From Gemmatimonadales bacterium (GTDB lineage Bacteria > Gemmatimonadota > Gemmatimonadetes > Gemmatimonadales > GWC2-71-9), in the NCBI GenBank assembly GCA_041741375.1, contig JBGSKF010000143.1:18633-82632 (forward strand): 64,000 bases of DNA, in the 5' to 3' direction. The position numbers were made by a program, and so were the translations under genes. Shown piece by piece: positions 40,212-55,679 of this stretch. Below the pieces are notes generated by a model that was not told the DNA's origin, did not search any database, and saw only the letters and a program-made list of their open reading frames with translations. Positions within the stretch are counted from its first letter, which is position 1. The number at the start of each line of letters is the position of its first letter.

Positions 40212-42896
40212 CTACTCCCCTCTCCCCCACTTCGCCACCAGCCCCTGCAACGTCGCCGAGGCCGTGATCTCGTCATGGGGCACCAGGAGGTAGGTCCACG
40301 GCTTCTCGCCATATCCCGCCGCAAACACGCTCGCATGCCCGCACCACTCCACCGCCGCCCGGGCCTTGGCCTGGACCTCGGGATCCTCCATCTCATTCGC
40401 CGCCTTCACCTCGATCAGCAGCTTCCGGTCGGTGGTTTCCGCAACGAAATCCGGTTCGTAGGACTGGGACTGGCCGTGGCCCCAGAAGATCCGCGGCGGC
40501 GGCCCGGCGAGCCGAGCCCACTTCACCACCTCCGGCGCGTCATCGAGCAGAACCGCCATCCGCCGCTCGGCGTCCGAATCGAACCGGGCCTCCCTGTAGA
40601 TGGACTTCCGGAAGTGCCCGAACCGCATCCCCCGGATCCGGCTCGGCGCCTGCACCGCAAACCGGACATCGCGCACCTTCTCCGCCTGGTCCGCCGTGCT
40701 CGCCTGGGGGGGAAGCTGCTCGAATCCCTTGCTGATCCGCGCCTCGTAGCCCACCGCATCCTCCCAGGCATGTTCCGCGAGCTGCGCATGCACCAGCTCC
40801 CCAATCTGGCGCTCGTAGAACTGGAGCACGTTCTTCACCGCGTCATCGTCCGGCAGGTAGCTCCGGAGCCGCGCCACCACCTGCCCCGCCAGCTTGTACA
40901 GCAGCTCGGAGTGGCTGTCATACGACACGTCGGGCCGGCCCACCAATGACCGCACCACGAAGTTCTCCAACCGCGGCTCATCCATCCGCGACGTGACACC
41001 CGAGAGCGTTTCCCGTGTGCTTTCGGAGAGGTGCTGAATCAGAATGTCGTTGTCCACCGGCTGGAAGTTGATCTTCGAGACGTCGAGCTCGAAGTCGCGG
41101 AATCCCGTTCGTACCTCCCCCTTCGGCACCACGAGGATCCGCGGGATGTCGATGTTGATCAGGCTGTAGATTTCCACCGCTTTCGACACCGGCGCGTCGA
41201 GATCCTCGGTGGAGCGGAGCGGGAGTTCCGCCTGAATTCCGGCGAGATGTTCCCGAACAGCCTGGACCAGACGGCTTCGCGGTTCATCATCGAGGAGGGA
41301 GCGGGTGGAGGGATAGTGCGCAAAGGCTGGGTGGTGAATCACCTCCAACGTGGCCCGTGCCACCTGGATGTCCTCCTCCGAGGTGAACACCGGCGGGGGA
41401 GCCTCCGGTGCGCCGTCGGTCACGGGGGGAGGGAGGAACATTGCCTGCGCGGGAGACGGCACCACCACCGCCACCCGGCCCACGGGGAGCGATTCCTCGT
41501 TCCCGATGTATACCGGCACATACCGGATCGCCGAGTCGGAACGGTTGGCCTCGTCGATGATCTCCTGGAACCGGTCGTGCGCCACGATGGTGAGCCGGTC
41601 CACCGCCGAGACACCGGTGCGCCGGCCGTAGGGGAGCCGGAGTCCCCGTCCGATGGACTGCTCCACCAGAGTGCGGCTTGTGGCGGTGCGGAGCGGCACG
41701 ATGGTGTAGAGGTTGGTGACGTCCCATCCCTCCTTCAGCATGTTCACGTGAATCACGATCTCGGTCGGTTCGGCGGGGTCCTCCACCTTGAGGAGCCGCT
41801 CGACGTTCTCCTCCCTCTCGTCCCCGCGGAGCGTCGAGTGCACCGTAATGACCTTGGCCGCATACTGGCCGCCGAAGAACGCCTCTCCCTTGATCCGCGC
41901 CTCGAGTTCCGCGGCGTGGGTCGTGTCCTTTGCCACCACGAGCATGAACGGCTTGACCTGCGGCTTCCCCTCCCGGATGGCGTAGGTCTGCAGCTCGGCC
42001 TTCACCGCCTCATGGATCCGGACCCCGTCCTCCAGCTTGAGCAGTTCCAGTTGCTCCTCGGTATACACCCCGGCGTCGAAGTTCTCCCGGGTGGCCACGG
42101 CAGGCTCCTTCACGAAGCCGTCGCGGAGAGCGTGGGTCAAGGGGTAGGAATAGATCACGTTCTTGAACGGCACCGGGGGCCGGGCGCCCCGTTCGATCTG
42201 CGGCGTGGCGGTGACCTCGAGCCCCAGGACCGGCTTGAGCTCATTGATGGCGTTCATTCCGGCGGCGGCGCGGTAGCGGTGGGACTCATCCATGAGCAGC
42301 ACGAGATCGGGGAGCTTGGAGAGGTACTCGAAGTAGCTCTCCCCGATGTACTCGTTGAGTCGCTTGACCCGGGGGGCGCTCCCACCCCGTACCTCGGTGT
42401 TGATCTTGGAGATGTTGAAGAGGTTGATGTTCACATCCCCCTCGCCGAAGAGATCGCCGCGCAGCGCCCGGCCGCTCTCCCAGTTGTCCCCGGTGATGAG
42501 TTCCGGCGGGTGGGTGGCGAACTCGGCGAGCCCCTGGAACACGTATTTCGGGGTGTTCGGGGTGAAGTCCGCGATCAGCTTGTTGTAGATGGTGAGGTTG
42601 GGGGCCAGCACGAAGAAGTGCCGGATCCCCTTGACCCGCCGGAGCCAGGCGATGAAGGCGCCCATGAGCCGAGTCTTGCCGACCCCGGTGGCGAGGGCGA
42701 AGCAGAGGGAGGGGAAGTCGCGTTCGAAGTCCTGCACCGAGGGGTACGCGGCGCTGACCCGTTCCAAGGCCGCGGCGACGTCCTGGTTCTTGGTGAGGGG
42801 GATCAGTTCGGTCGCGGCGGCGAGGATCTCCAGCGCCTCCCGCTGGGGCGCGCGGAGCGAGAGCCGTCCGGCCACTGCCGCGACTTCCCGGCTCAT
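40212..42896 (-). CDS. res: type III restriction enzyme Res subunit (DEAD/DEAH helicase-nuclease)
   Basis: ORF 40212..42896. Motif I ATGVGKT, motif II LLMDESHRY, helicase C region. 4-nt overlap with mod. Confidence 0.85.
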   Translation of the reverse strand: MSREVAAVAGRLSLRAPQREALEILAAATELIPLTKNQDVAAALERVSAAYPSVQDFERDFPSLCFALATGVGKTRLMGAFIAWLRRVKGIRHFFVLAPNLTIYNKLIADFTPNTPKYVFQGLAEFATHPPELITGDNWESGRALRGDLFGEGDVNINLFNISKINTEVRGGSAPRVKRLNEYIGESYFEYLSKLPDLVLLMDESHRYRAAAGMNAINELKPVLGLEVTATPQIERGARPPVPFKNVIYSYPLTHALRDGFVKEPAVATRENFDAGVYTEEQLELLKLEDGVRIHEAVKAELQTYAIREGKPQVKPFMLVVAKDTTHAAELEARIKGEAFFGGQYAAKVITVHSTLRGDEREENVERLLKVEDPAEPTEIVIHVNMLKEGWDVTNLYTIVPLRTATSRTLVEQSIGRGLRLPYGRRTGVSAVDRLTIVAHDRFQEIIDEANRSDSAIRYVPVYIGNEESLPVGRVAVVVPSPAQAMFLPPPVTDGAPEAPPPVFTSEEDIQVARATLEVIHHPAFAHYPSTRSLLDDEPRSRLVQAVREHLAGIQAELPLRSTEDLDAPVSKAVEIYSLINIDIPRILVVPKGEVRTGFRDFELDVSKINFQPVDNDILIQHLSESTRETLSGVTSRMDEPRLENFVVRSLVGRPDVSYDSHSELLYKLAGQVVARLRSYLPDDDAVKNVLQFYERQIGELVHAQLAEHAWEDAVGYEARISKGFEQLPPQASTADQAEKVRDVRFAVQAPSRIRGMRFGHFRKSIYREARFDSDAERRMAVLLDDAPEVVKWARLAGPPPRIFWGHGQSQSYEPDFVAETTDRKLLIEVKAANEMEDPEVQAKARAAVEWCGHASVFAAGYGEKPWTYLLVPHDEITASATLQGLVAKWGRGE

Positions 42897-44515
42897 GTTT
42901 CGTTCTCCGCGAAGATCTCCGCCTGGTCCGGAACGACCCGCGGGGCATCGGGGAGGTCCCGGATCTCCAGGGAGTAGTCATCCCGGCCCCACTCGCACTT
43001 GGAGAGCACCGCCTGGGGAATCTTCTTGAGGGTCAGGTTGGGCCATTGGCTCGCCTTCCCCTTGAACGCGCCGCAGCAGACCAGCAGCGACCGCTCGGGC
43101 CCCACCTCCTCGCTCAACTGGTCGAGTTGCGCCTTGGTGAGGGTCTGGGTGGTGACGTAGAGGAAGTCCCGTTCGGTGGACTGCCCCTGCTGCCACCACC
43201 GCTCCTCGCTCGGCGCGTAGCGGAACCCTTCCAGCTTGGCCACCGCCTCTGCAAGCATCGCGGCGTTGTATTCCTTCGACACCACCCAGTTGCCCCAGCG
43301 GTCCTGTTCCATGAGGGAGGGGGCGAGCCGGTAGTAGCGGAACCCACCGCCGCCCTTCCACTTCACCGCCTCGGTAATTCCGCCCGGATCCTCGCCGTCG
43401 ATCACCTTGCGGAGGCGGGGGATGATGTGGGTGTGACAGTGTTCTCCGAGCTCGATCATGATCCAGCGGCGTCCCATCTTGTGGGCCACGGCGCCGGTGG
43501 TGCCGGAACCGGCGAAGGAGTCGAGGACGAGGTCGCCACGATTCGATGCGATCTGAAGTATTCGGGAAATGAGCCTCTCTGGCTTGGGGGTAAGAAACGC
43601 CTCCTCTTTGCCAAACAGCTCGTGGATCTCCTTCCGGGCTTCGTCCGTATGCCCGACCTCCTCATGTGGCCACCATGTCCACGGCACCATTCCTTCGACT
43701 TCGTCGAGAAAGCGGATCACATTGGGCTGGCTGTTATTGTCCTTGCCAAAGTAGATACGACCCGTGGCGAGTAGTTTCTGGTACTCAGTCTCGACCATTG
43801 ACCAACATCGACCCTCCGGCGGCAGATGCTCTTTCCCGCCGGGTGCTGTGATTACATACATCTGATTCGGTCGATACCCCTGTGCTGTCATCGGGGTCGG
43901 CCGCCAGCGCCCACGAATGTTGCCATCGGGATTCTTGTATACCCTCGCCTGTGCCTCGGTTATCGGAACTCGATTCCTTGTCGCCTTAAACCTGCTGGTG
44001 TCCCTGGCGTACACCAAGACATAGTCGTGCGCGTCCCCGATTGCTTCTCGGTTTTCGCGCGAATAGCGCTTTTGCCAAATGATGTTGGCGATGAACTGGC
44101 TTCGTCCGAAGATCTCATCACACAACACCTTCAGGTAGTGCGCCTCGTTGTCGTCGATGGTGATCCAGAGGGAACCGTCCTCGGAGAGGAGGTTCCGGAT
44201 GATCTCCAGCCGGTCCCGCATCAGGGAGAGCCAGAGGGAGTGTTCCAGGCCGTCGTCGTAGTGGGTGAAGGCGCTGCCGGTATTGTAGGGCGGGTCGATG
44301 AAGACGCACTTCACCTTGCCGGTGAATTCCTGTTCCAGGGCCTTGAGGGCCAGGAGATTGTCGCCGAAGATGAGGCGGTTGTCGAAGAGGTCGTGGTCGG
44401 TGACCCGGTGGGGGGCGTGATGGGACTTGGCCGGGTCCTCGATGAGGATCCGGGGTTCGAGGCGGGGGCGCTGGCCCTTGCCGACCCAGGTGAGTTCAAG
44501 GCGGGTGCGAGCCAT
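42893..44515 (-). CDS. mod: type III DNA methyltransferase Mod subunit (beta-class N6A/N4C)
   Basis: ORF 42893..44515. Catalytic VFIDPPYNTG precedes the AdoMet motif VLDSFAGSGTTG. Confidence 0.9.
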   Translation of the reverse strand: MARTRLELTWVGKGQRPRLEPRILIEDPAKSHHAPHRVTDHDLFDNRLIFGDNLLALKALEQEFTGKVKCVFIDPPYNTGSAFTHYDDGLEHSLWLSLMRDRLEIIRNLLSEDGSLWITIDDNEAHYLKVLCDEIFGRSQFIANIIWQKRYSRENREAIGDAHDYVLVYARDTSRFKATRNRVPITEAQARVYKNPDGNIRGRWRPTPMTAQGYRPNQMYVITAPGGKEHLPPEGRCWSMVETEYQKLLATGRIYFGKDNNSQPNVIRFLDEVEGMVPWTWWPHEEVGHTDEARKEIHELFGKEEAFLTPKPERLISRILQIASNRGDLVLDSFAGSGTTGAVAHKMGRRWIMIELGEHCHTHIIPRLRKVIDGEDPGGITEAVKWKGGGGFRYYRLAPSLMEQDRWGNWVVSKEYNAAMLAEAVAKLEGFRYAPSEERWWQQGQSTERDFLYVTTQTLTKAQLDQLSEEVGPERSLLVCCGAFKGKASQWPNLTLKKIPQAVLSKCEWGRDDYSLEIRDLPDAPRVVPDQAEIFAENET

Positions 44516-44551: not shown

Positions 44552-45058
44552 TCAGGACGTCGCCAAGTCGCCTGGGGGTTCCAGAGGAAGGGACCCCTGC
44601 TCGACGATCGGTTTGCGGATTGGTATCCCCACCAGCCTTCCCATCTGGAGCAGCTTGGTGTCATAGGTGAGAAACTCGTCAACATCCAACTCCAGAGCCG
44701 AAGCAAGGTGAATGGCGTCGGGTGGCCTCAGGTTTTGTCCATTCGTCAGTGCCTGACGAATGAGACCCCGGGCCTCACGAGCCAGGGAGGGATGCAGCTC
44801 AATCATCTTCACCGGTGATCCCGGTACCCATAGCGCATCAATACTCTGTTCGACTTCCGGGCTCAGTGTGCGACTGTCCTTCTCTTCCTTGGCGAAAGCC
44901 ACTTCTGTCATGGAGAGAACGGAGGTGGCAATCCGGCGCTTCCCGGCGTGGGCCTGCTCAAGCAGTTCCCGCAAGTCGGCGGTGCGGTCGCGGGCCCCCT
45001 CGATATAGGAGAGGAAGAGACAGGCATCCCAATATGAGGCCGGGACATCACCAGGCAT
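44552..45058 (-). CDS. PIN-domain protein
   Basis: ORF 44552..45058. WDACLFLSYIEG...SVLSMTEV...PDAIHLASAL...FLTYD. 11-nt overlap with the upstream gene. Confidence 0.75.
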   Translation of the reverse strand: MPGDVPASYWDACLFLSYIEGARDRTADLRELLEQAHAGKRRIATSVLSMTEVAFAKEEKDSRTLSPEVEQSIDALWVPGSPVKMIELHPSLAREARGLIRQALTNGQNLRPPDAIHLASALELDVDEFLTYDTKLLQMGRLVGIPIRKPIVEQGSLPLEPPGDLATS

Positions 45059-45830
45059 CGCGCACCAGCCTTATCGCCTCCTCTGCGGAAATCGTATTCG
45101 CGGCCGGAGCGATACCCATTGCCCGTCGCCAGCCTTCACGCTCCCCGTCCGCAACGAGCGACACCCTGGTCACGTTCCGGACCGCAAGCGGTCGTCCCGT
45201 TTCAGGATCGCGACTCACCAGGCCGACCACTTCGGCACGATGACCCCAGATATCCCGCATCGTCTCCTCGTACCCCGGACGGAGGTAGCACGATACCGCC
45301 TTGTCGTGCAGTTCATCGAACAGGGTGAAACGAAGCCCTCCACGATGGCTCAGCGTCTCAACCCGGCCGGTAACAGTACCAATCGCTGGCTGCAGTGCGA
45401 CGGTCGGAACAGCAGGCGATTCCCTGACGAGTTGCAGGTGACCCCTCGGCCGAACAATCACCTCGCGGTACTCCGTCTCAAACCGAATGGAAGGAACCGT
45501 ACCACTCTGGATCAGGCGCAGAAAGGTCTTGGATGCGCTTCGGACCCGCGGCGTGAGTTGCTCCACAGTATCATTTCGGATCGCCTCCCCCGTGGATTCG
45601 TAGGCTCGCACGACCTGATCCACTTGGCTCGCGGGCCCGATGCCACGAATCGTTGCCACCGCACTGCTCGTGTACAGGCTGTCCACGACCCACTGGACGC
45701 TGCTCAGGGGGTGTTCTCCCCCTACCTCGGTGGCAAGCGCAGCAACGAGCGATTCAAGCCCTGCCATGGCGTCGGAGAACGCCTTCAGGGAGACCTGACC
45801 GTCGACGGCCAGCGTGAGGGTGTCCGCCAT
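45048..45830 (-). CDS. unknown protein coupled to PIN (antitoxin-like C-tail)
   Basis: ORF 45048..45992. ATG 45830 is preceded by aggaaggg; alternative starts reach 45992. No recognised domain. The C-terminus ISAEEAIRLVRDAW resembles VapB-type tails. Confidence 0.5.
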   Translation of the reverse strand: MADTLTLAVDGQVSLKAFSDAMAGLESLVAALATEVGGEHPLSSVQWVVDSLYTSSAVATIRGIGPASQVDQVVRAYESTGEAIRNDTVEQLTPRVRSASKTFLRLIQSGTVPSIRFETEYREVIVRPRGHLQLVRESPAVPTVALQPAIGTVTGRVETLSHRGGLRFTLFDELHDKAVSCYLRPGYEETMRDIWGHRAEVVGLVSRDPETGRPLAVRNVTRVSLVADGEREGWRRAMGIAPAANTISAEEAIRLVRDAW

Positions 45831-46282
45831 GTATGCCCTTCCTGCCGGGAACCGTGGGATTGAGCCAAGCCGCCGAGAAATGGGGTGCCGATGGCGGATG
45901 GCGCCGCTGATCAAAATATACAGCGTTTCGGCGAGATCATGCTCTTCCTGGGGCATGCTCAGCGAACTTCGAGCAGCGTCGTAAACGGCCACCGCGCTGG
46001 TCGTTGGCGGCCCAAGTGCGTTCGAGGCGCTGTCCGGCCATCAGGGAATGATTACCTCGGGGTGTGACAATGGGAACCGTGGTTCGGCCGCCGGCTCCTC
46101 ATTCGTTGCTCCCCTTCCTCCACGGATTTCTTGTTTCCCCGGTCTCCCTCGTGCTCTTTCTGGGCGTTATCGGCATTGAGAGTCCGGCCTTCAGCGTTCA
46201 GGACGGTTTCTCCTCCAGGCTGTAATGGTCAAGTCCCAGTCTGACGGTCGGCCGCCCTTCCTGGCAAACGTGGGTAGGCTGG

Positions 46283-46917
46283 CTAGTCAAAGCAATCCGA
46301 GAGCCACCGGCTGTCGATGCGGATGAACGAGTTCACCGCGCTCGCCAGCTGCGCTCCCGGACCGGCGGAAACCGCGTAGACGCGCTTGCCGTGACGCCGT
46401 ACCGCCTCGACCGCTGGTGTGAAATCGCCGTCCGCTGAGAGTAGGTAGGCCGAATCGAATTGATCTCGTTCGGCCATGACGACCATGTCGACGGCCAACA
46501 TCACGTCGACAGCCTTCTCTACGAAGACGATCGGATTGGCATTGTGAGACGCGAGTCTCAGACAGCGCGCGATAAACTACAGGGTCGAGTCGCACCGGAA
46601 GCGTGCTCAGCAGTTGACGAAGCTCTTTCGCAACCGGTTGGGTGCGTGCCTGGATTCCAGTCGGCCGAAATGAATCGAGACCCTCGCATCTGAGGCCTTC
46701 AAAGCATCTACGAACCTCCGTTGCTTTGCGTACAGGTCAGGGTTTCCTTGCTGCTTTACCTCCCGATGTAGTAGCGAATCCCGGACAAGCTCCTTGGTCC
46801 GAGCAGCTTTGCGGCAAGTTTCGTGTAGCTCAACTGGAACAGATCGCTGAGGCCGATGTCCTTCAGCGAGTGGTACCAATTGTTGCCGTCGATGAAGAGG
46901 ACCGCGCGACCCGGCAT
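46283..46917 (-). pseudogene. NYN/LabA-like domain gene with at least three frameshifts
   Basis: Own translation gives four segments in different frames. (1) MPGRAVLFIDGNNWYHSLKDIGLSDLFQLSYTKLAAKLLG...YYIGR, ending in a stop. (2) VKQQGNPDLYAKQRRFVDALKASDARVSIHFGRLE. (3) AKELRQLLSTLPVRLDP. (4) NPIVFVEKAVDVMLAVDMV...SADGDFTPAVEAVRRHGKRVY. Confidence 0.7.
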
Positions 46918-47371
46918 GCAGGAGAGTCCTGGGGAAGAAGAACCCCGGCGTGTGGCCTTGCGACCAGACCCCGGGGGGATAAAGCCGATCTCCCGTGAGA
47001 GACCGTAGTTGAAAGATCGGCCAGCGGCTGCAAACTGTCAAGTTGCAGCACCAGCCAACCGTCAAGTGTTGCTTGACAGTTGCGTCCCGGCCGAGCTCAC
47101 CATTCTCATAAATGCTTTGTGCATAAACACTTACATTTCCGATTCTTCGGGTTTCGCGTGGGCCCCGGGGCTCTTGCCCTGGGCTCGGCGGGCGGGGGGC
47201 CGTTCACAAGGCCGGGTGCTCCTCGCTGCTCCCGGTGGTGTGACTCACCTCACTCGGCCGAGCAAGGGGCGTCAGCCAGTGCCGTGGGGCGGTTCTCGGA
47301 TGCCCAGAATCCCGTCATGCCGTGAACGAGCGTGTTCCGGGACCCGGTTCCGCCCTCATCGCCACCGGTTG

Positions 47372-47584
47372 TCAGTCCCAGTCGATACCATCGATGATGC
47401 CGGAAAAGTCGGCTCGTTGCCTCACGATGCCGATGAATTTGTGCGTTGGCTGGAACTCGGGTTCTTCATGCCAGTCGAATTCACGTTTTCGTCCGTCGAT
47501 CACCGGTGGCGCGGAGGACGCCCGACGGGGTGAGTCGACCGAAAGCGTGACGGTTCCGGGTACGTGGCTCTCGGTGTCGTTCAT
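47372..47584 (-). CDS. small hypothetical protein (second gene of a coupled pair)
   Basis: ORF 47372..47584. ATGA overlap with the upstream ORF. No recognised domain. Confidence 0.4.
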   Translation of the reverse strand: MNDTESHVPGTVTLSVDSPRRASSAPPVIDGRKREFDWHEEPEFQPTHKFIGIVRQRADFSGIIDGIDWD

Positions 47585-47931
47585 AACTGTGAAGTATCGG
47601 GTTCCGGGGGTGTTCGCGCAACCCAGTCGCCAAGCGCCCCGACCCGGCGAAGGGCGGCAAGCACCTCGGGAGGAAGTTCGTCACCCAGTGCATAAGATCC
47701 ATGGCTGCTCTCATGGCCGTACAGACCGGCGAGGTTCAACGTTCCATCGCGCCCCACCGCGATGGCGAGGACACGTCGGGGACCGAAATCCCACTCGAAA
47801 CGGAACTCGCCGTCCTGGTCGATCGCCACATAGGGCCGGGCAACGCATGCAGGGAGGGAACGCACGAAGCGCCACGCGCATGGCATGGTGCCGGGACCAA
47901 CCAAGGGCGTATCGTTGGGCGGCGCGGTCAT
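47581..47931 (-). CDS. hypothetical protein (first gene of a coupled pair)
   Basis: ORF 47581..48120. ATG candidates at 47931, 48045 and 48120. Core sequence YVAIDQDGEFRFEWDFGPRRVLAIAVGRDGTLNLAGLYG. Confidence 0.4.
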   Translation of the reverse strand: MTAPPNDTPLVGPGTMPCAWRFVRSLPACVARPYVAIDQDGEFRFEWDFGPRRVLAIAVGRDGTLNLAGLYGHESSHGSYALGDELPPEVLAALRRVGALGDWVARTPPEPDTSQL

Positions 47932-48254
47932 TCCCCGTACTCGTGACTGGAGGGATGCCTTCAAGGTAACGGGAACGACCGAGTCGAGCAAGCGGGAAAT
48001 GAGAACATAAACTGTTTTGTTGCAAGACGTTACGATGGTTGGCATCGGATCCGCTCCTGTCGAGCCACGAGAATGGCGCCTCAGTTGTGACGTGATCCCT
48101 AAAGTGTGGTTGCGTAGCACGAATCATGCTGTGAAGGATAGGAGATAGCACTTTCAGGGGACATTGCGCACATTTTCGGCACAAAAAGCACATTGCGGTT
48201 GCTATATTGTTCTCCAGGTGCTGGATGTCACTCTCCCGAAGCCCAGGAAGAACG

Positions 48255-49610
48255 ATGCTCCTCTCCTTTCGCTTCAAGAACTTCCGCTCGTTCAGGGACG
48301 AACAGGAATTCTCGATGGTGGCGAGCAACCTGAAGGGCCCCACCGAGCCACTCATCGAGACCGGCCGGAAAGACCTGAAGGTTCTTCCCGTGGCGGCGGT
48401 CTATGGGGCGAACGCCTCCGGGAAAACGAATTTCCTCAATGCGCTCGATTTCATGGCCTGGGCCGTCCGCGAATCCTTTCGTTCCTGGACGCCGGGCGGA
48501 GGAATTCCTGTTGAGCAGTTCAAGCTCGATACCGAGGGTGGCGTGCAGGCGATGCGTTTCGAGGTTGACCTGCTCCTCGACGCGGTTCGCTTCCAGTACG
48601 GCTTCCGCCTCGACCCCTCGCGCATTCTCGAAGAGTGGCTTTATGCGTTTCCGGAAGGGCGGCGTCAGCTCTGGTTCAGCCGTGAGCACGGTGACAGGAC
48701 CGAGCAGTTCAAGTTCGGGAAGAACCTGACCGGTCCGAACCAGTCGGTTCGTGAGGTGACGCGAGAGAACAGCCTCTTCCTCTCTGCAGCGGCGCAGAAC
48801 AACCATGGACGGGTTTTTCCAGTTTACCATTGGTTCGCGCATTACCTGGATGTCATCTGCGGCAGCCGGGCTGACTTGCTTCGTGATTCGACCAGGTGCT
48901 CCCTGGGCTCAGGATCACGCCAGCCGCTGATGGAGTTTCTGGCGGCTGCGGACCCAGGAATCACTAACGTCGAGTTCGAGGACGAGCCGGCAGGTATCCA
49001 GCGTTTGTTCAGATTCCCTGCCACCATTCACGAGGCATCTCGCCCGCACCATCTGCGGGCGGTAATCAACTCTGCCCCATCTCCGGGGGAGGTATCACCG
49101 AAGGGCTCCGGACTCCGCCCGGGCAGGACCACCCTTCCCGGGGTTCCGAGAATCACCTTTTCGCACTCCACAGGAGTGGGTGGGGCGGAGGTCAAGTTCG
49201 GGATCGAGGAGGAGTCTGAGGGAACCCGCGCCATCCTGGCCCTCGCGGTTCCGATCGTCCTCTGTCTGGAGCGAGGTAGTGTTCTCCTGGTTGACGAGCT
49301 GGAGGCGAGTCTCCACCCCTTGCTCGCCCGGGAGGTGATCCGGCTCTTCAGCCGGCGGGAGTCGAACCCGCGAGGGGCGCAGCTCATCTTCAACACACAC
49401 GATACGAATCTGCTCGATCCCGACCTCCTGCGGCGCGATCAGATCTGGTTCTGTGAGAAGGATCGTGAGGGAGCATCCAGGCTCTATCCACTCTCGGACT
49501 TTCGGCCGAGAAGAATGGAAAACGTGGAGCGTGGCTACCTGCAGGGCCGTTACGGGGCCATCCCGTTTCTCGGAGACCTGATTCCCTCGCTGGGTGAAAG
49601 CAGCGAATGA
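48255..49610 (+). CDS. AAA_21/ABC-type ATPase (AbiLi-like)
   Basis: ORF 48207..49610 from ATG 48255. MLLSFRFKNFRSFRDEQEF, Walker A GANASGKTN, Walker B LLVDELEASLHP, FNTHD. Confidence 0.85.
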   Translation: MLLSFRFKNFRSFRDEQEFSMVASNLKGPTEPLIETGRKDLKVLPVAAVYGANASGKTNFLNALDFMAWAVRESFRSWTPGGGIPVEQFKLDTEGGVQAMRFEVDLLLDAVRFQYGFRLDPSRILEEWLYAFPEGRRQLWFSREHGDRTEQFKFGKNLTGPNQSVREVTRENSLFLSAAAQNNHGRVFPVYHWFAHYLDVICGSRADLLRDSTRCSLGSGSRQPLMEFLAAADPGITNVEFEDEPAGIQRLFRFPATIHEASRPHHLRAVINSAPSPGEVSPKGSGLRPGRTTLPGVPRITFSHSTGVGGAEVKFGIEEESEGTRAILALAVPIVLCLERGSVLLVDELEASLHPLLAREVIRLFSRRESNPRGAQLIFNTHDTNLLDPDLLRRDQIWFCEKDREGASRLYPLSDFRPRRMENVERGYLQGRYGAIPFLGDLIPSLGESSE

Positions 49611-50254
49611 GTCGTGGCCGAGGGCGGGGAGGAAGCAGGGAGAACCTCCGGAGGAAGCCACCCACTCGTGACCCCCGCCCTCGCATTCTGGTGCTGTGCG
49701 AGGGCGCGAAGTGCGAGCCTGGCTACCTGAGGGCGTTCTGCCGACATTTCCGAGCTACGTCGGTCGTTCTTGACAAGGCGGCCGGTCTTGATCCCAAGGC
49801 ATTGGTGGAGGTCGCGCGTACTCGCCTTCGGGAATCCCGGCGCGAGGCGAAGCAATATCGGGACAAGAACCTGGAGTTTGACCAGGTATGGTGCGTTGTG
49901 GATGTCGACGATCACCGCCGATTGCAGGAAGCTCGGATCATGGCGCGGGACAATGGCATCGAGCTCGTGATCTCGAACCCCTGCTTCGAGTTGTGGCTGA
50001 TCCTGCATTTTCGAGATCAGACAGCGTACATCGACCGGTTTCAACTCAAATCGGCGTGCCGGAACCTGTCGGAGAGCGACCGCGCTGGATATCCACCGTT
50101 TGCGATCTGCGTTTCTCACTACGACACGGCGGTTGGCCGGGCCCGGCAACTTGACGACCGCAACGACAGGGATGGCGAGCCGGGCAGGAACCCCTCGACG
50201 AGCGTGTACCGCCTGACTGAACGGATTCTGGAGATCGTGAACCTTTCGACCTAG
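49607..50254 (+). CDS. RloB-like protein (AbiLii-like)
   Basis: ORF 49607..50254. ILVLCEGAKCEPGYL... and VWCVVDVDDH are typical of the RloB family. 4-nt overlap with the ATPase. Confidence 0.8.
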   Translation: MSRGRGRGGSRENLRRKPPTRDPRPRILVLCEGAKCEPGYLRAFCRHFRATSVVLDKAAGLDPKALVEVARTRLRESRREAKQYRDKNLEFDQVWCVVDVDDHRRLQEARIMARDNGIELVISNPCFELWLILHFRDQTAYIDRFQLKSACRNLSESDRAGYPPFAICVSHYDTAVGRARQLDDRNDRDGEPGRNPSTSVYRLTERILEIVNLST

Positions 50255-50591
50255 CAGGCTCACCGGCAGAGCGTAACGGAGACATCCGGTGCTTCGACGC
50301 TTGCTGCACCCCGGTGGGCGGTCCCTGGCGGGACGACCGTGGGGCCTCGCGGTTCCAGGGTAGCGCCTCCGGCGCAACCCTGGGCTCAAAGAACGATGCC
50401 CCGTTGGGGCATGGGGACGGATTTCGGCGTATTTCGGACACCGAGTTCGGTTTTGGTCATATAGCGCTCAAAGACGCAATGGCCTGACTGATGGTTCGAT
50501 TGTTGCGATTGTTGCGATTATGCCGTATCTTGTGTCTGCGGACGTAGCGGACAACGAAAGTCTCATTATTGACCTTGGGAGGAACCCCAAC

Positions 50592-51050
50592 ATGCTTCCC
50601 GCCACTCATCGCCCGAACGACCCTGCGGTCCCCAGTACCGAGGATGCGCACCTGGCCGAACAGGGCAGCCGATTGCTCGCTGCCTGCATCGGGCGGGGGC
50701 CCACGGCCAGACTGCGGGTCATTGACGGGGAAAAGGACATCACCGTGCCCGTCGCGGCACTCCATCTCCTGGTGGACATCCTCGCGCAGATGGCCCGGGG
50801 CAACGCGGTGACCGTCGTCCCGATCAACGCCGAACTGACCACCCAGCAGGCGGCCGATTTCCTCAACGTCTCCCGTCCCTTTCTCATCGGCTTGCTGGAA
50901 CAGGGAAAGGTGCCGTACCGGAAGGTGGGCACCCACCGGCGGGTGCGGTTCGATGACTTGGTCAAGTACCGCGAGGTGAGCTTGGCGGATCAGAAGGCGG
51001 CGGCTGATGAGCTGACCAGACAGGCACAGGAACTGGGGCTGGGATACTGA
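50592..51050 (+). CDS. excisionase/MerR-type HTH antitoxin
   Basis: ORF 50520..51050 from ATG 50592. LTTQQAADFLNVSRPFLIGLLEQGKVPYRKVGTHRRV. Confidence 0.7.
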   Translation: MLPATHRPNDPAVPSTEDAHLAEQGSRLLAACIGRGPTARLRVIDGEKDITVPVAALHLLVDILAQMARGNAVTVVPINAELTTQQAADFLNVSRPFLIGLLEQGKVPYRKVGTHRRVRFDDLVKYREVSLADQKAAADELTRQAQELGLGY

Positions 51051-51053
51051 CGG

Positions 51054-51623
51054 GTGGCCAGTTTCGTCGCGGTGTTCGACGCTTGCGTTCTCTACCCGGC
51101 TGCGGTCCGCGACCTGCTCGTCCGGTTGGGCAAGTCCGGGCTCTTCCGGGCTCGATGGTCCGACCTGATTCACGAGGAATGGGTCGGGTCTCTCCTCGAA
51201 CAGCGACCGGATCTCAACCACAATCAGCTTCAGCGCACCGTGGCACTTATGAACAGGGCAATCCCGGATGCCACGGTGACGGGCCACGAGGGTCTCATTG
51301 AAGGGCTGCATCTGCCGGATCCGAAGGACCGGCACGTCCTTGCAGCTGCGATCAGATGCCAGGCGGGTGTGATCGTTACCTACAACCTCAGAGATTTTCC
51401 ATCCGACGTGCTCGACCTCTACGGGCTCGAGACCCAGCACCCCGACGAGTTCGTCACCCATCTGTTCGATCTCGACCCGGCACGGGTCTGTGCGACTGTC
51501 CGGGATCAGCGGGCCGCGCTTCGATCACCACCGGTGTCCTTGCCAGAGCTGCTGGACACCTTCCGGCACGCAGGCCTCGCGACCTCCGTGTCGGCGCTGG
51601 AGTACATGTCGGAGCTGCTCTGA
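51054..51623 (+). CDS. PIN-domain toxin with C-terminal extension
   Basis: ORF 51054..51623 (GTG). VFDACVLYPA...DPKDRHVLAAAI...IVTYNLRDF. Confidence 0.75.
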   Translation: MASFVAVFDACVLYPAAVRDLLVRLGKSGLFRARWSDLIHEEWVGSLLEQRPDLNHNQLQRTVALMNRAIPDATVTGHEGLIEGLHLPDPKDRHVLAAAIRCQAGVIVTYNLRDFPSDVLDLYGLETQHPDEFVTHLFDLDPARVCATVRDQRAALRSPPVSLPELLDTFRHAGLATSVSALEYMSELL

Positions 51624-51627
51624 GCCC

Positions 51628-54516
51628 TTATGCGAGTACCCACCGGATCGTGAACAGCGTCCGCCGGGCGGTACTCTGCTCCAGCTTCCCCTCGATCCCC
51701 TCGATCAGGGCGTCCCGCCGAGCATCGATCGCGTCCTGAGCCTCGAAGAGAGTGCGTCGCTTCTGGTTCCGCTGGGTCTCCAGCGTCTTGATCCGCTTCT
51801 GGCCCTCCAGCTTTTCCTCCAGCGTCTGCATCAGCGCCGCCGCCCGCCGTGCCTCGCGGATCTCCCGGTCCATTTCCTTGATATCCCGTTCCAACCCCAC
51901 CTTCAAGTCGTCCGCCCAGCCGTCCAGCTTGGTCGCCTCGGCCTCGAAAAACCGGGCATTCCGTTCCGAGATGGTCCGCCGGATCTCCCCCTCCTGCTGC
52001 CCCCCGATCGCCGCCAGCGATGCCGGCACGTTCTCGGGATCGGCCGAGCCGGTGACCATGCCAGGAAGCGACAGAAGCCGCGAAACGATGTCGGGGTCGA
52101 GTGCCTCCCCGGTGTCGGTCTGTGCCGCCAGCAGGATGTGGTCTTCCCCCTGATCGAGCGTCTCGATGCTCAGCAGCGTCGCTGTCAACCAGCCGGATGT
52201 CCCGACCAGCGGCTCCAGAACGGAGATCCTCCCCTCATGGTCACTATACCGGAACTCGACCGTCGCAGGCCGGAGTGTGCGTGCGCCCGCGCGCTCCAGC
52301 AGCCACTGCGCCAGGGGGTGGCTCAAGCGGTACAGGTGCGCGTCGCCGGTCCGGCGGGGGAGTTCGTACCGCCCCAGGGGGACCTCGGTGTCCAGGACCC
52401 CGTCCGGCAGGCGGTGCAGGTCGAAACTCGCGTCGTCCAGAAAGTCTGCGTCCGCGCCGAGCTCGTGGCGGGTCAGTTCGATGAGCAGGCGTTCGTACCG
52501 GTTGAGTGAGGCCCTGGCGTCACTGTCGCGGGTCCGGAGTTTTTCGCGGACCTCGTCGTCGAAGTTCTCCAGGAGCTGTTGCCGGGTCCGTGCCATCGAT
52601 TCGCTGATTTCCAGGCTCAATTCCAGCTGCAGCTCATCGAAGGCCTGTTGAATTTCCTCGGGATGCCGGCAGGTCTGGTAGATGGCCGCGATCCGCTTCT
52701 CGAAATCAACTCCCGATTCCAGGGCGCCCAGGATGTCATCGCTGGCCCCGAAGACTCCCTCGAACAGCCGGAACTTCCGGGACAGCAGCTCATACACCCG
52801 TTGATCCGCTGCGTTCTTGCGGTTGATGAAGTTGACCACCACCACGTCGTGCCGCTGGCCGTACCGGTGGCACCGCCCGATCCGTTGTTCGATGCGTTGC
52901 GGGTTCCAGGGGAGGTCGTAGTTCACCACCAGGGAACAGAACTGCAGGTTGATCCCCTCGGCGCCGGCCTCGGTGGCGATCATGATCCGGCCCTGTTCGC
53001 GGAAATAGTCGACCAGCGCCGAGCGCATGTCCGCGGTGCGGGAGCCGGTGACGTGCTCGGTATCGCGATGCCGCTCGATCCACTCGGCGTAGATCGCCCG
53101 GGAGCGCTCGTCGGTGTTGGAGCCGTTGAACAGGACGATCCCCTCGCAAAAGGGGCTGTCCATGAGCAGGCGGAGGAGGTAGCTCTGGGTCCGGCGGCTC
53201 TCCGTGAAGATGATCGCCTTCTCGGCGCCGCCCAGCTCGGCGGTCCGGCGGAAGGCGACCTCCAACGCCCTGATCAGAGCCTTTCCCTTGGCATTGTGCT
53301 CGACGGAGGTTGCCAGCGCTATGAACGTATCGAGGTCCGCCATCTCGTGAACGATGCTCTCGCGGTCCTCGGCGGAAAGATCGTCGCCCGGAGGATCCTC
53401 CGGCCATTCCTCGGCCGTTTCGTCCAGCGCTTCGTAGTCGTGGTCCAGCTCCTCATCCAGTCGCTCCGACGGTTCCTCCTGTTGGAGTCGGCGGTGCAGG
53501 CGCTCCCGCATCGTCGTCAGGGCGCCCGCAATGGCGAAAGTCGATGACGCGAGAAGTTTCCGCAGCACCAGCGTGATGAGGGACCGCTGGCCGGCGGGGA
53601 GGGCCTGCAGGTTGGGGCGCTGCAGATACTCCGACACGAGGTGGTAGAGCCGGTCCTCGCCCTCTTCGGGGGTGAATTCTTCCACGAGAGGGAGCCGCCG
53701 GGTGTACGGGATGTAGGCGGTCACCTGGCGGCGCAGGGTTCGATGGCAGAGGGGACGGAGGCGGGCCCGCAGCTGGTCGAAGGCGCCGGGATGGTCCAGC
53801 GAGGAGAATTGGTCGCGGAAGCTCCGAATATCCCCGAAGAGATGATCATCGATGACGCTGACGAGCCCATACAGTTCCATCAGCGAGTTCTGAAGGGGCG
53901 TGGCGGTCAGCAGGAGCTTGTGACGTCCGGCCAGGGCCTGCTTCAGGGTATTCGCGATGACGTTCGCCGGTTTGTATACGTTGCGGAGGCGGTGGGCCTC
54001 GTCAATCACGACCAGATCCCAGGGCACGGAGCGGACGTCGTCCGCCTTGCTGCGGGCAAACTGGTAGGAACAGATGACGATGTCGGGCGCTTCGAACGGT
54101 CGGACCTCTCCCTGCCTGACAGAGGCGTTGTAGGACCTCGATTCCAGGATGCGGCAGGGAAGGAAGAACTTTTCGGTGAGTTCCTGCAGCCACTGCTTGC
54201 GGAGATTGGCCGGGGTGATCACCAGGATCCTCCGCTTCCGTTCCGCCCACCGTTGGGCCATCACCAGGCCCGCTTCGATGGTCTTTCCCAACCCCACCTC
54301 ATCGGCCAGGAGGGCTCCCTGGGCCAGGGGCGACGCGAAGGCAAAGAGGGCCGCATCCACCTGGTGCGGGTTCAGATCCACCTGCGCACTGGCCACGGCA
54401 CCGGCCAGGCGCTCGGGACTGTCCGGCGGGAACCGGCGGGTGAGCTGGTGGGCAATGAACATCGCGTGATAGTCCGTCAGCATCGTCACACCACCTCCGT
54501 TTCCAGTCATGGTCAT
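51628..54516 (-). CDS. SNF2-family helicase with long C-terminal domain and coiled coil
   Basis: ORF 51628..54516. LADEVGLGKT, VVIDEAHRLRN, LLLTATPLQN, helicase C QRIGRCHRYGQ. About 340 aa of C-terminal extension ends in a coiled coil. Confidence 0.9.
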   Translation of the reverse strand: MTMTGNGGGVTMLTDYHAMFIAHQLTRRFPPDSPERLAGAVASAQVDLNPHQVDAALFAFASPLAQGALLADEVGLGKTIEAGLVMAQRWAERKRRILVITPANLRKQWLQELTEKFFLPCRILESRSYNASVRQGEVRPFEAPDIVICSYQFARSKADDVRSVPWDLVVIDEAHRLRNVYKPANVIANTLKQALAGRHKLLLTATPLQNSLMELYGLVSVIDDHLFGDIRSFRDQFSSLDHPGAFDQLRARLRPLCHRTLRRQVTAYIPYTRRLPLVEEFTPEEGEDRLYHLVSEYLQRPNLQALPAGQRSLITLVLRKLLASSTFAIAGALTTMRERLHRRLQQEEPSERLDEELDHDYEALDETAEEWPEDPPGDDLSAEDRESIVHEMADLDTFIALATSVEHNAKGKALIRALEVAFRRTAELGGAEKAIIFTESRRTQSYLLRLLMDSPFCEGIVLFNGSNTDERSRAIYAEWIERHRDTEHVTGSRTADMRSALVDYFREQGRIMIATEAGAEGINLQFCSLVVNYDLPWNPQRIEQRIGRCHRYGQRHDVVVVNFINRKNAADQRVYELLSRKFRLFEGVFGASDDILGALESGVDFEKRIAAIYQTCRHPEEIQQAFDELQLELSLEISESMARTRQQLLENFDDEVREKLRTRDSDARASLNRYERLLIELTRHELGADADFLDDASFDLHRLPDGVLDTEVPLGRYELPRRTGDAHLYRLSHPLAQWLLERAGARTLRPATVEFRYSDHEGRISVLEPLVGTSGWLTATLLSIETLDQGEDHILLAAQTDTGEALDPDIVSRLLSLPGMVTGSADPENVPASLAAIGGQQEGEIRRTISERNARFFEAEATKLDGWADDLKVGLERDIKEMDREIREARRAAALMQTLEEKLEGQKRIKTLETQRNQKRRTLFEAQDAIDARRDALIEGIEGKLEQSTARRTLFTIRWVLA

Positions 54517-55679
54517 GATGGTGCGCCAGGGTTCGTCACCCGCCGCACCGGCACCTGCTGCCTGAGCACATCCGCGCCGGCAGCATAGCCACGCTCTGAT
54601 CGGCTGGCGAGGCCCATCGCGACCAGCGTCTCCAGATCCCGCTGCAAAGTCTTCCCCGACAGCGTTGCGTAGTCCCGGGCAATCGCCGGTGTCAGTTCCA
54701 TGACCTCCCTCACCGTGAGTACCCGGTCCCTCGGCAGCGCCAGCGCCAGCCGTCGTTGCCGCACGAAGGCCGACTTTTTGGTGTACTGCTTCTCCGCGAA
54801 CTGGTCGTAGATCAACTTGATCCAGGTGATGTCGAACTGGTTGGCTTGAATGGTCTGGAGAGTGCGCAGGAGCCCGTCACGAAACCCCTGGACCGCGTAG
54901 TCGATGAACGCGCTGAGATCCCGGCGGTCATGGGCCAGTTGGATCTGGCGGTAGTACTCCGTCCGCGTCTCGTTGTAGTGATTGGAGAGGATGTGCGAGG
55001 CGATGTCGGGGTTCCCCGCCCGCAGCAGGAGGTAGAACTCGACCAGGCGGCCAGTGCGTCCGTTGCCATCGGCGAAGGGGTGGATCCACTCAATGTACAC
55101 ATGGGTCACGATGGCCTGGATCACCGCCTCCGCGAAGGTTTGACCGTCCTCATACCGGAACTGCCGCGGCAGCCAGTCACAGAGCCGGGTCACCAGTTCC
55201 GGCACGTCCTGGTATGCCGGGGTGCGGTAGGGCCCCACCCGCCGGTGATCTTCCCGAAAGCGCCCCGGGATGGCATCGAAGTGCGGGCCCAGCTCCTTGC
55301 CGATCATCTGGTGGAAGCGGCGGAGCAGATCCGCCGAGATGCGTTCGGCGTTCCCCTGGACGGCCACCTCCTGGAGCAGAATGTTGAACGCGTCCAGGAT
55401 GTTCCGCACCTCCTGCTCCTGGTACTGCTTGCTGGGCGGGAGAGACTTTCCCTCGACGACCTGCTCAATCTCCTCCTCGGAGAGGGTGTTGCCCTCGATG
55501 GCGGTCGTGGCTTGAGCCCCCTTGGTCAGGGATACCAGCAGCAGGCGGCGATGGTACTCCGGCAGGAGCGGGGCGTTGGCGATCGCCTGGACGATGGCGT
55601 CGCACTGCCCCAGCTCGTAGTGTGTTTTTGAGCTGAGGTTCCAGTGCCTGTTGAAGTGGAGGTGATCGTATGCACTCAA
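54513..55679 (-). CDS. Fic-domain protein with N-terminal inhibitory motif and C-terminal winged helix
   Basis: ORF 54513..55679 (TTG). Fic motif HPFADGNGRTGRL. (S/T)xxxE(G/N)-type motif TTAIEGN. ATGA overlap with the SNF2 start. Confidence 0.9.
   Translation of the reverse strand: MSAYDHLHFNRHWNLSSKTHYELGQCDAIVQAIANAPLLPEYHRRLLLVSLTKGAQATTAIEGNTLSEEEIEQVVEGKSLPPSKQYQEQEVRNILDAFNILLQEVAVQGNAERISADLLRRFHQMIGKELGPHFDAIPGRFREDHRRVGPYRTPAYQDVPELVTRLCDWLPRQFRYEDGQTFAEAVIQAIVTHVYIEWIHPFADGNGRTGRLVEFYLLLRAGNPDIASHILSNHYNETRTEYYRQIQLAHDRRDLSAFIDYAVQGFRDGLLRTLQTIQANQFDITWIKLIYDQFAEKQYTKKSAFVRQRRLALALPRDRVLTVREVMELTPAIARDYATLSGKTLQRDLETLVAMGLASRSERGYAAGADVLRQQVPVRRVTNPGAPS

Follow-up and report, generated by a model that had tools for sequence, protein, structure and literature searches.

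The locus examined here lies in a stretch of 64,000 nucleotides (nt) of contig JBGSKF010000143.1 from a Gemmatimonadales bacterium (assembly GCA_041741375.1), hereafter referred to as the window, in which two small open reading frames (ORFs) on the minus strand, A and B, overlap by the tetranucleotide ATGA. Four types of described systems come close to it. The abortive-infection pair AbiL, consisting of the AAA_21 ATPase AbiLi and the RloB protein AbiLii, is the immediate divergent neighbor of A and shares an intergenic region with it; A and B are not components of this system, and none of the 80 other AbiL loci that we surveyed has them. A second point of reference is the protein family TIGR04255, described in NCBIfam as a "sporadically distributed" hypothetical protein, for which no mention was found in our literature search. 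Full-length relatives of A are located directly downstream of TIGR04255 genes and are ATGA-coupled to them, whereas the window has neither a TIGR04255 gene nor a gene for the third protein of these operons, C, and its A is short by about 70 N-terminal codons.

The third system is PDC-M32. PDC systems are a set of 145 phage defence candidates (PDC), which were identified inside BREX, DISARM and type I restriction-modification systems on the principle of guilt-by-embedding (bioRxiv 10.1101/2024.01.29.577857), and our literature search encountered PDC-M32 only as the name of a PADLOC match. Relatives of A and C match its A and B models weakly but repeatedly; however, the TIGR04255-type protein has no match to PDC-M32A and is not what makes up the N-terminal 260 positions of that profile, PDC-M32 is a candidate system only, and the A protein of the window is itself without a match. 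Finally, type II orphan antitoxins can be compared with A on grounds of general knowledge. A is likewise small, presumably non-enzymatic, and under selection after losing its operon mates, but it has no homology to known antitoxin families, no DNA-binding motif was identified in it, and a toxin activity of C is putative.

The original prediction for this locus, drawn from the bare sequence, viewed A and B as a coupled two-gene module of the toxin-antitoxin or accessory defence type. Our comparative analysis argues for a different origin: A and B are probably two unrelated pieces of DNA that were joined by a rearrangement, with A being a remnant of a three-gene operon, which we designate T-A-C, and B a doubtful ORF. 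The elements on which this assessment relies are the following (aa, amino acids).

47581..48120, minus strand: ORF A, longest form, 179 aa from a GTG; in-frame ATG codons at 48045 (154 aa) and 47931 (116 aa)
47581..47931, minus strand: ORF A, conserved form, 116 aa from the conserved ATG; a solitary A-family protein, truncated at its N-terminus
47626..47928, minus strand: core domain of A; a helix, five beta-strands in a meander and a further helix at the C-terminus
47581..47625, minus strand: last 14 codons of ORF A (WVARTPPEPDTSQL) and its stop codon; apparently DNA of the B-side segment
47372..47584, minus strand: ORF B, 70 aa, a lineage-restricted orphan ORF
47932..48254, no strand: divergent intergenic region between A and AAA_21; its counterpart in locus L006 is the T-A-C operon leader
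48255..50254, plus strand: AbiL-type pair, AAA_21/AbiLi (48255-49610) and RloB/AbiLii (49607-50254); context, outside the A/B unit
46283..46917, minus strand: NYN-domain pseudogene downstream of B; B-side segment in common with locus L010

T-A-C operons and the truncated A gene

A protein-cluster search yielded homologues of A in four other protein clusters. A profile built from the four distinct A sequences and run against 1.84 billion cluster representatives recovered 1561 proteins with E<=1e-3, of which 332 had E<=1e-10. The median length of family members is 164 aa; among 149 listed proteins, 115 possess between 150 and 180 aa and 14 have 130 aa or fewer. The matched domain is located C-terminally, and none of 51 A-family members has a Pfam or NCBIfam family.

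The genetic surroundings of A were assessed in 20 loci (L015-L034) obtained from a scan of GTDB species genomes; they span Methylomirabilis, Binatia, Gemmatimonadota, Acidobacteriota, Phycisphaerae (Phycisphaeraceae), 'Deltaproteobacteria' and metagenome-assembled genomes of Enterobacteriaceae. In 18 of these 20 loci, A (about 165 aa) is directly preceded by a gene for a TIGR04255-family protein of about 247 aa (T), and the two genes overlap by ATGA in 17 cases and by GTGA in one; the junction of the T stop and the A start reads ...GAATGA in nearly all T-bearing genome loci. A gene for a protein of about 130 aa (C) starts within about 10 nt of the A stop codon, again in 18 of the 20 loci. The trio is also present in loci L006-L008 and in the IMG/VR contig L115; IMG/VR holds two contigs with A, one of them with the full trio. 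The T protein of L006 matches TIGR04255 in NCBIfam (E=2e-36), and the T proteins of the genome loci are related to it. Collectively, these arrangements show what appears to be a translationally coupled three-gene operon that occurs sporadically across bacterial phyla.

The genes flanking T-A-C vary from locus to locus: 143 Pfam families were found among 130 flanking proteins, and they include a cobyric-acid synthase, acyl-CoA dehydrogenases, and a few restriction-modification genes and integrases. Such heterogeneous flanks are the pattern of a self-contained, horizontally moving module. Operon DNA from the L026 locus found no counterpart in complete Escherichia coli genomes (blastn), and the A protein of L026 alone had no tblastn match in PLSDB plasmids or INPHARED phages. 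A and C are both absent from Pfam and NCBIfam. Sequence and profile searches of the PDB returned no meaningful solved relative of T, A or C, and a PHROGs scan of 51 relatives of these proteins gave only phrog_5464, for which no function is given (3 of the 51). A fusion of T and A, which would constitute a Rosetta-stone link between them, was not found among the long A-family members.

Among the T-A-C loci, L006 appears to be the nearest to the window, and it keeps the operon beside the same AbiL pair: AbiL is transcribed divergently from T-A-C, the intergenic leader is the same, and the AAA_21 proteins are closely related (phmmer, E=2.5e-200). Homology between the window and L006 (blastn) extends from AAA_21 through the leader to window position 47945, equivalent to L006 position 2548, which lies 49 nt before the T start codon; an alignment of the leaders of the window, L001, L006 and L009 is conserved up to this same point. 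Homology restarts at window 47820, equivalent to L006 3661, and L006 2549-3660 is missing from the window. These stop and restart points suggest that a deletion of about 1 kb, common to the window, L001 and L009, removed T and about 70 N-terminal codons of A. Residues 73-173 of the L006 A protein align to window 47928-47626 with 72% identity (tblastn), and the 116-aa product of the window, A116, matches the hidden Markov model (HMM) of the family with E=3e-40 and possesses all invariant and near-invariant residues of the family. Neither tblastn nor HMM searches revealed a homologue of T or C within the 64-kb window. Of the features that characterize a T-A-C operon, the window consequently has the A domain and lacks an upstream T, a C gene at the A stop codon, and an A protein of full length (about 150-180 aa). 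This comparison shows the A gene of the window to be, as far as can be judged from sequence, the shortened and solitary survivor of the middle gene of T-A-C.

These data lend themselves to the following putative history. The ancestor, pictured after L006, would have carried a T-A-C operon divergently beside this AbiL pair. One deletion would then have eliminated T together with the first 70 or so codons of A and provided A with a new ATG, which lies 14 nt past the old operon leader. In a second event, C would have been replaced by other DNA. The A frame now runs for 14 codons into this DNA and ends at a TGA that happens to overlap the ATG of B.

Which start codon is used has a bearing on the protein that is to be considered. 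ATG 47931 is kept in the window, L001 and L009 in a four-way alignment of the upstream regions that includes L006. At the position of ATG 48045 of the window, L001, L006 and L009 have GAG or AAG; the frame upstream of 47931 is broken by one- and two-base indels in L001 and L009, and the codon usage of the upstream extension is non-coding-like (-0.32 bits per codon). Hence, the conserved product of A has 116 aa, and the 154- and 179-aa forms were ruled out as the conserved protein on the basis of the start-codon alignment and the codon usage of the extension. In this genome only, ATG 48045 is preceded by a Shine-Dalgarno sequence, AGGAG-N8 (48043-48058, minus strand). The public gene call P0001 (sources NCBI and Logan) takes this ATG and thereby arrives at 154 aa, and a window-specific product of this size may be made.

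The ratio of non-synonymous to synonymous substitution rates (dN/dS, Nei-Gojobori) of A is 0.18-0.29 in every pair of loci compared; AAA_21 and RloB have values of 0.27 and 0.17. The excess of synonymous changes is significant in Fisher tests of the window against L001 and against L009 (p=1e-4 each) and against L006 (p=3e-8), and the value of 1e-4 holds even among the three truncated copies (window, L001, L009). These three copies, which share the truncation, have a dN/dS of 0.28 over a dS of about 0.32 and contain no frameshift or stop in any of them. The codon usage of the A core amounts to 0.06 bits per codon and is the best of its six frames; by the same yardstick, real neighboring genes score 0.11-0.35 and three non-coding controls about -0.1 to -0.6 in every frame. 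We take these substitution patterns to show that A is a real gene under purifying selection. They bear directly on the possibility that both ORFs are functionless debris, with A as a pseudogene fragment that has not yet been disabled and B as a chance ORF in GC-rich DNA. It is true that the neighboring NYN gene is a frameshifted pseudogene, that A has been deprived of T and C as well as of about 30% of its length and has no good ribosome-binding site, and that B bears no signature of selection. However, the selection on A in the absence of any disabling mutation, together with a six-frame codon profile of B that is gene-like and unlike that of the flanking non-coding DNA, makes this explanation quite improbable.

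The A/B junction and ORF B

The two ORFs and their overlap are positioned as the original prediction had them: the ATG of B (47584-47582) overlaps the TGA of A (47583-47581). The homology of the A core to L006, L008 and L009 ends at window 47626-47633; the A proteins of L006 and L008 stop three to four residues past a GALGD motif, and that of L009 stops after GAL. Approached from the other side, the homology to L010, a locus that carries B without A, begins at window 47622, 38 nt upstream of the B start codon, and continues through B, a 455-nt spacer and the NYN gene. The homology breakpoints are thus situated 42-45 nt upstream of the A stop codon, within the last 14 codons of A, which implies that WVARTPPEPDTSQL is read from B-side DNA and that the ATGA overlap arose because the original stop codon of A was lost at the junction. 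Taken together, the breakpoints show the overlap to be, by all appearances, a by-product of the junction, created by the A frame running 14 codons into foreign DNA. In L010, the region upstream of B (84-775) encodes a 141-aa HNH endonuclease whose tail is a glycine zipper, and a YjzC-like protein of 63 aa.

This observation affects the initial view that A and B constitute a two-gene module, coupled in translation, of the toxin-antitoxin or accessory defence kind. The genes do overlap by ATGA, are small and co-directional, have coding-like codon usage and reside in a defence island, and they stay together in the islands most similar to that of the window, L001-L005 and L011-L014. Yet these islands are near-identical, and it is only in this narrow lineage that A and B occur together: A is found without B in L006-L009 and L015-L034, being followed in L009 by SLFN_AlbA_2 and Fic-like genes, it is accompanied by T and C elsewhere, and B is without A in L010. 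Since the breakpoints moreover fall inside the tail of A, B gives no sign of purifying selection, and neither protein matches a known toxin or antitoxin family, we regard a coupled A/B module as highly improbable. What had been named in advance as speaking against the module, homologues that do not conserve the pair, is indeed what we found; the second such feature, codon statistics resembling those of shadow ORFs, is not present, as each of the two ORFs has the best codon-usage score of its own six frames.

As anticipated, no known motif was detected in either protein: A has no match in Pfam, NCBIfam, PADLOC or the PDB (sequence and profile searches), and B none in Pfam, NCBIfam, PADLOC, the PDB or Rfam. 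Homologues of B were confined to three protein clusters among 5.8 billion (B itself and two others), and no viral match was obtained. With 0.13 bits per codon over its full length and 0.25 over the 3' 150 nt, the codon usage of B is the best of its six frames, and its six-frame profile resembles that of real neighbors (PIN, 0.155; RloB, 0.11). The dN/dS values are 1.4, 0.77 and 0.54 (p=0.26-0.74). Synonymous and non-synonymous codon changes stand at 1:17, 2:25 and 2:16, the fewest synonymous changes of the six frames, and variable sites are distributed over codon positions 1, 2 and 3 as 14, 16 and 13. The ATG of B is not preceded by a Shine-Dalgarno site. Across three diverged copies, the 213 nt of B contain no indel; the adjacent spacer has four.

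In a comparison of the window with L010, codons 1-21 of B (47522-47584, minus strand) show local hypervariability, with an identity of only 69%; the corresponding values are 93% for the adjacent non-coding spacer and 95% for the 3' part of B. An RNA element in the invariant 3' part of B was considered and rejected (no Rfam match; fold z-score -0.82); a 19-nt inverted repeat (47351-47369 and 47502-47520) is, judged by eye in the alignment, not maintained in L001 or L010. Nor is B a diverged C or T (hhalign probability below 1%; 0.6% for C).

These features give somewhat less than an even chance to the notion that B is a genuine small protein gene of the NYN-side segment whose N-terminal 20 residues evolve rapidly, through either diversifying selection or an unconstrained disordered tail. 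In its favor are the best-of-six-frames codon usage with 0.25 bits per codon in the 3' part, the absence of indels from the diverged copies compared with four in the spacer, the divergence of codons 1-21 next to a well-conserved non-coding spacer, and the conservation in L010, despite different upstream genes, of the 38 nt that precede the ATG. It is difficult to reconcile with the near absence of synonymous changes, the lack of a third-position bias, of a Shine-Dalgarno site and of homologues beyond the three clusters, and with the fact that ORFs of 70 codons are common by chance at 62% GC. The chances that B is a real small protein in the first place are about even. A genuine B is compatible with our interpretation of A as a T-A-C remnant: coding or not, B appears not to be the evolutionary partner of A and is best described as a putative orphan ORF travelling with the downstream segment, which carries the NYN gene in L010.

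AbiL, PDC-M32 and the candidate function of A

The neighboring genes had been predicted to encode an AAA ATPase and RloB, and database matches bear this out, identifying an intact AbiL-type pair (AAA_21: Pfam E=4e-41, PADLOC AbiLi E=3e-104; RloB: Pfam E=5e-36, PADLOC AbiLii E=5e-28). The 323-nt intergenic region between A and AAA_21 is, as expected, the most AT-rich part of the neighborhood, with a GC content of 0.54 compared with 0.65 for the whole window. In a promoter scan, neither strand of 47932-48254 contained a sigma-70 promoter of the consensus type; the sole promoter-like match of the scanned region is on the plus strand at 47369-47398, outside this intergenic region. No terminator was found in the scanned interval 46900-48400, and the intergenic region has no Rfam match.

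We surveyed 80 metagenomic AbiL loci whose AAA_21 proteins are 35-46% identical to that of the window; RloB is present in 69 of them, and at least 800 nt upstream are available in 53. None of the 80 contains A, B, T or C, and no relative of the AAA_21 or RloB proteins of the window was detected in the 20 T-A-C genome loci, so that the suggestion that A and B might travel with AAA_21/RloB pairs did not hold. These same data argue against a scenario in which this AbiL variant has recruited the truncated A as a regulator or as an additional, third component, for instance via the shared divergent intergenic region that A adjoins. Such a role would agree with the purifying selection on A after its truncation, with its position beside the same AAA_21/RloB pair in three downstream contexts (the window and L001; L009; L006-L007), and with a weak, non-significant likeness of the A model to the DNA-binding C-terminal domain of phage T4 MotA. 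Since the adjacency of A and AbiL, restricted to one narrow clade, is explained by descent from a single, L006-like ancestor, we consider this co-option unlikely.

The expectation of a beta-rich core in A was borne out by AlphaFold models, in which five strands are flanked by helices. An AlphaFold2 model of the full-length relative P0003, calculated from a 17-sequence alignment (mean pLDDT confidence 77.7, above 90 over the core), has a disordered segment (residues 1-48), two helices (53-74 and 84-96), five strands (105-152) and a further helix (159-168). The A protein of the window retains the part from just before the second helix onward. The invariant residues of the A domain are structural only (G41, W47, G63 and G78, plus A, L and P). 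Invariant or near-invariant positions of C are R23, K25, S39 (the serine being near-invariant), F41, W52, R93, H94 and K104, a pattern that would be more like an active site than that of A.

A PADLOC scan of 51 T, A and C proteins (20 A and 17 C proteins among them), tallied together, gave matches to one PDC-M32A model for 13 (best E=1.4e-5), to a second PDC-M32A model for four, and to PDC-M32B for seven (best E=1.4e-5). In the PDC-M32A profile, which has 375 positions, residues 65-120 of the long form of A align to 267-324, and a C protein matches PDC-M32B almost from end to end (17-116 of 123); hence, there is a second architecture in which a domain like A is found together with a protein like C.

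From the structural-only invariants of A, the R, K and H residues of C, and the joint occurrence of A- and C-like parts in PDC-M32, A might most plausibly be seen as a non-enzymatic, antitoxin-like or adaptor-like binding partner of a C-type effector, a function that is weakly supported. The truncated, solitary A could then have been kept as an orphan binding or neutralizing subunit transcribed from the old operon leader. By extension, T-A-C as a whole might be a widespread, self-contained and so far undescribed conflict module, toxin-antitoxin-like or anti-phage, in which the A domain is the partner of the C-type effector and the A protein of the window an orphan neutralizer, retained beside AbiL for protection against C-type effectors or for control of the shared promoter. 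We regard this as a possible but doubtful proposal. The link to defence that had been suggested for the locus thus survives in part: A is evidently a real gene in a defence-rich island, and its family is weakly related to the candidate PDC-M32A; what does not survive is the coupled toxin-antitoxin or accessory pair.

A number of observations weigh against the reconstruction outlined in this report. ATG 47931 has no well-spaced Shine-Dalgarno sequence (a GGGGA abuts the ATG), and L001 and L009 have none at all; expression of A is consequently putative. The purifying selection on the truncated A could in part reflect gene conversion from full-length copies. At the junction, the identity between the window and L001 does not switch sharply, with about 85-93% in A and 90-95% in B, so that the case for a junction rests on L006, L008, L009 and L010. 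The codon usage of B is like that of a real gene, and B may accordingly be a genuine small protein. With respect to function, the disordered N-terminus, which contains a conserved DRxxS motif, and helix 1 are missing from the truncated A, and the orphan-antitoxin idea fails if it is these segments that do the neutralizing. The PDC-M32 matches are weak (E-values from 1e-5 to 3e-3) and their tally is not split by member, and A116 has no PDC-M32 match in PADLOC. A Foldseek search of the PDB gave nothing below E=0.4 and no functional lead, and BFVD yielded only uncharacterized phage proteins (E=0.02-0.09), likewise without a functional lead; the functions of T, A and C are putative, as no structural match provides one.

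The surrounding island and its wider meaning

The genes around A and B are arranged in the order Fic and SNF2 helicase, HTH_17/PIN_3, AbiL, A and B, NYN pseudogene, a 260-aa protein with PIN, and type III Mod and Res. When the window is compared with L001, identity is about 93% both on the helicase/Fic side and on the 260-aa/PIN/Mod side, but 60-77% in the AbiL body. The type III restriction-modification genes (40212-44515, minus strand; Res 894 aa, Mod 540 aa) and the SNF2-family helicase gene (962 aa), which overlaps the Fic gene (51628-55679, minus strand), bracket AbiL, A/B and two PIN pairs, which therefore look like cassettes within a larger conserved island. The island appears to be a mosaic with embedded and partly decaying cassettes.

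One of the two PIN pairs lies between RloB and the helicase (50520-51623, plus strand) and encodes HTH_17 (176 aa) and PIN_3/VapC50-like (189 aa) proteins; it is present in the window and in L011-L013 and absent from L001 and L002. The other (44552-45992, minus strand) comprises a family-less protein of about 260 aa (longest ORF 314 aa; ATG near 45830) and a PIN gene (44552-45058), which overlap by 11 nt. This pair is 93% identical in L001, has dN/dS values of 0.11-0.20, and looks like a toxin-antitoxin pair with an unclassified partner. On the B side, the Pfam NYN model matches two separate ORF fragments of the pseudogene. Relative to L010, in which the ORF is open (122 aa), the reading frame changes at least three times within 46283-46917, one of the changes being a 19-nt deletion near 46762. 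A 1.25-kb segment (46103-47350) is absent from L001.

For the window, the outcome of our analysis is mainly corrective. An apparent overlapping gene pair probably represents a rearrangement scar, from which it follows that in mosaic islands a start-stop overlap should not on its own be taken for functional coupling. The A gene of the window is a truncated, solitary form of an operon type that is already catalogued; the interest of the locus is modest, and what is useful beyond this correction is the parent operon. T-A-C is compact and apparently coupled, is found in many phyla, has two of its three proteins outside Pfam and NCBIfam, and possesses a remote link to PDC-M32. If T-A-C should turn out to act against phages or as a toxin-antitoxin system, the truncated A genes of the window, L001 and L009 would constitute a natural example of an orphan subunit on which selection continues once its partners are gone.

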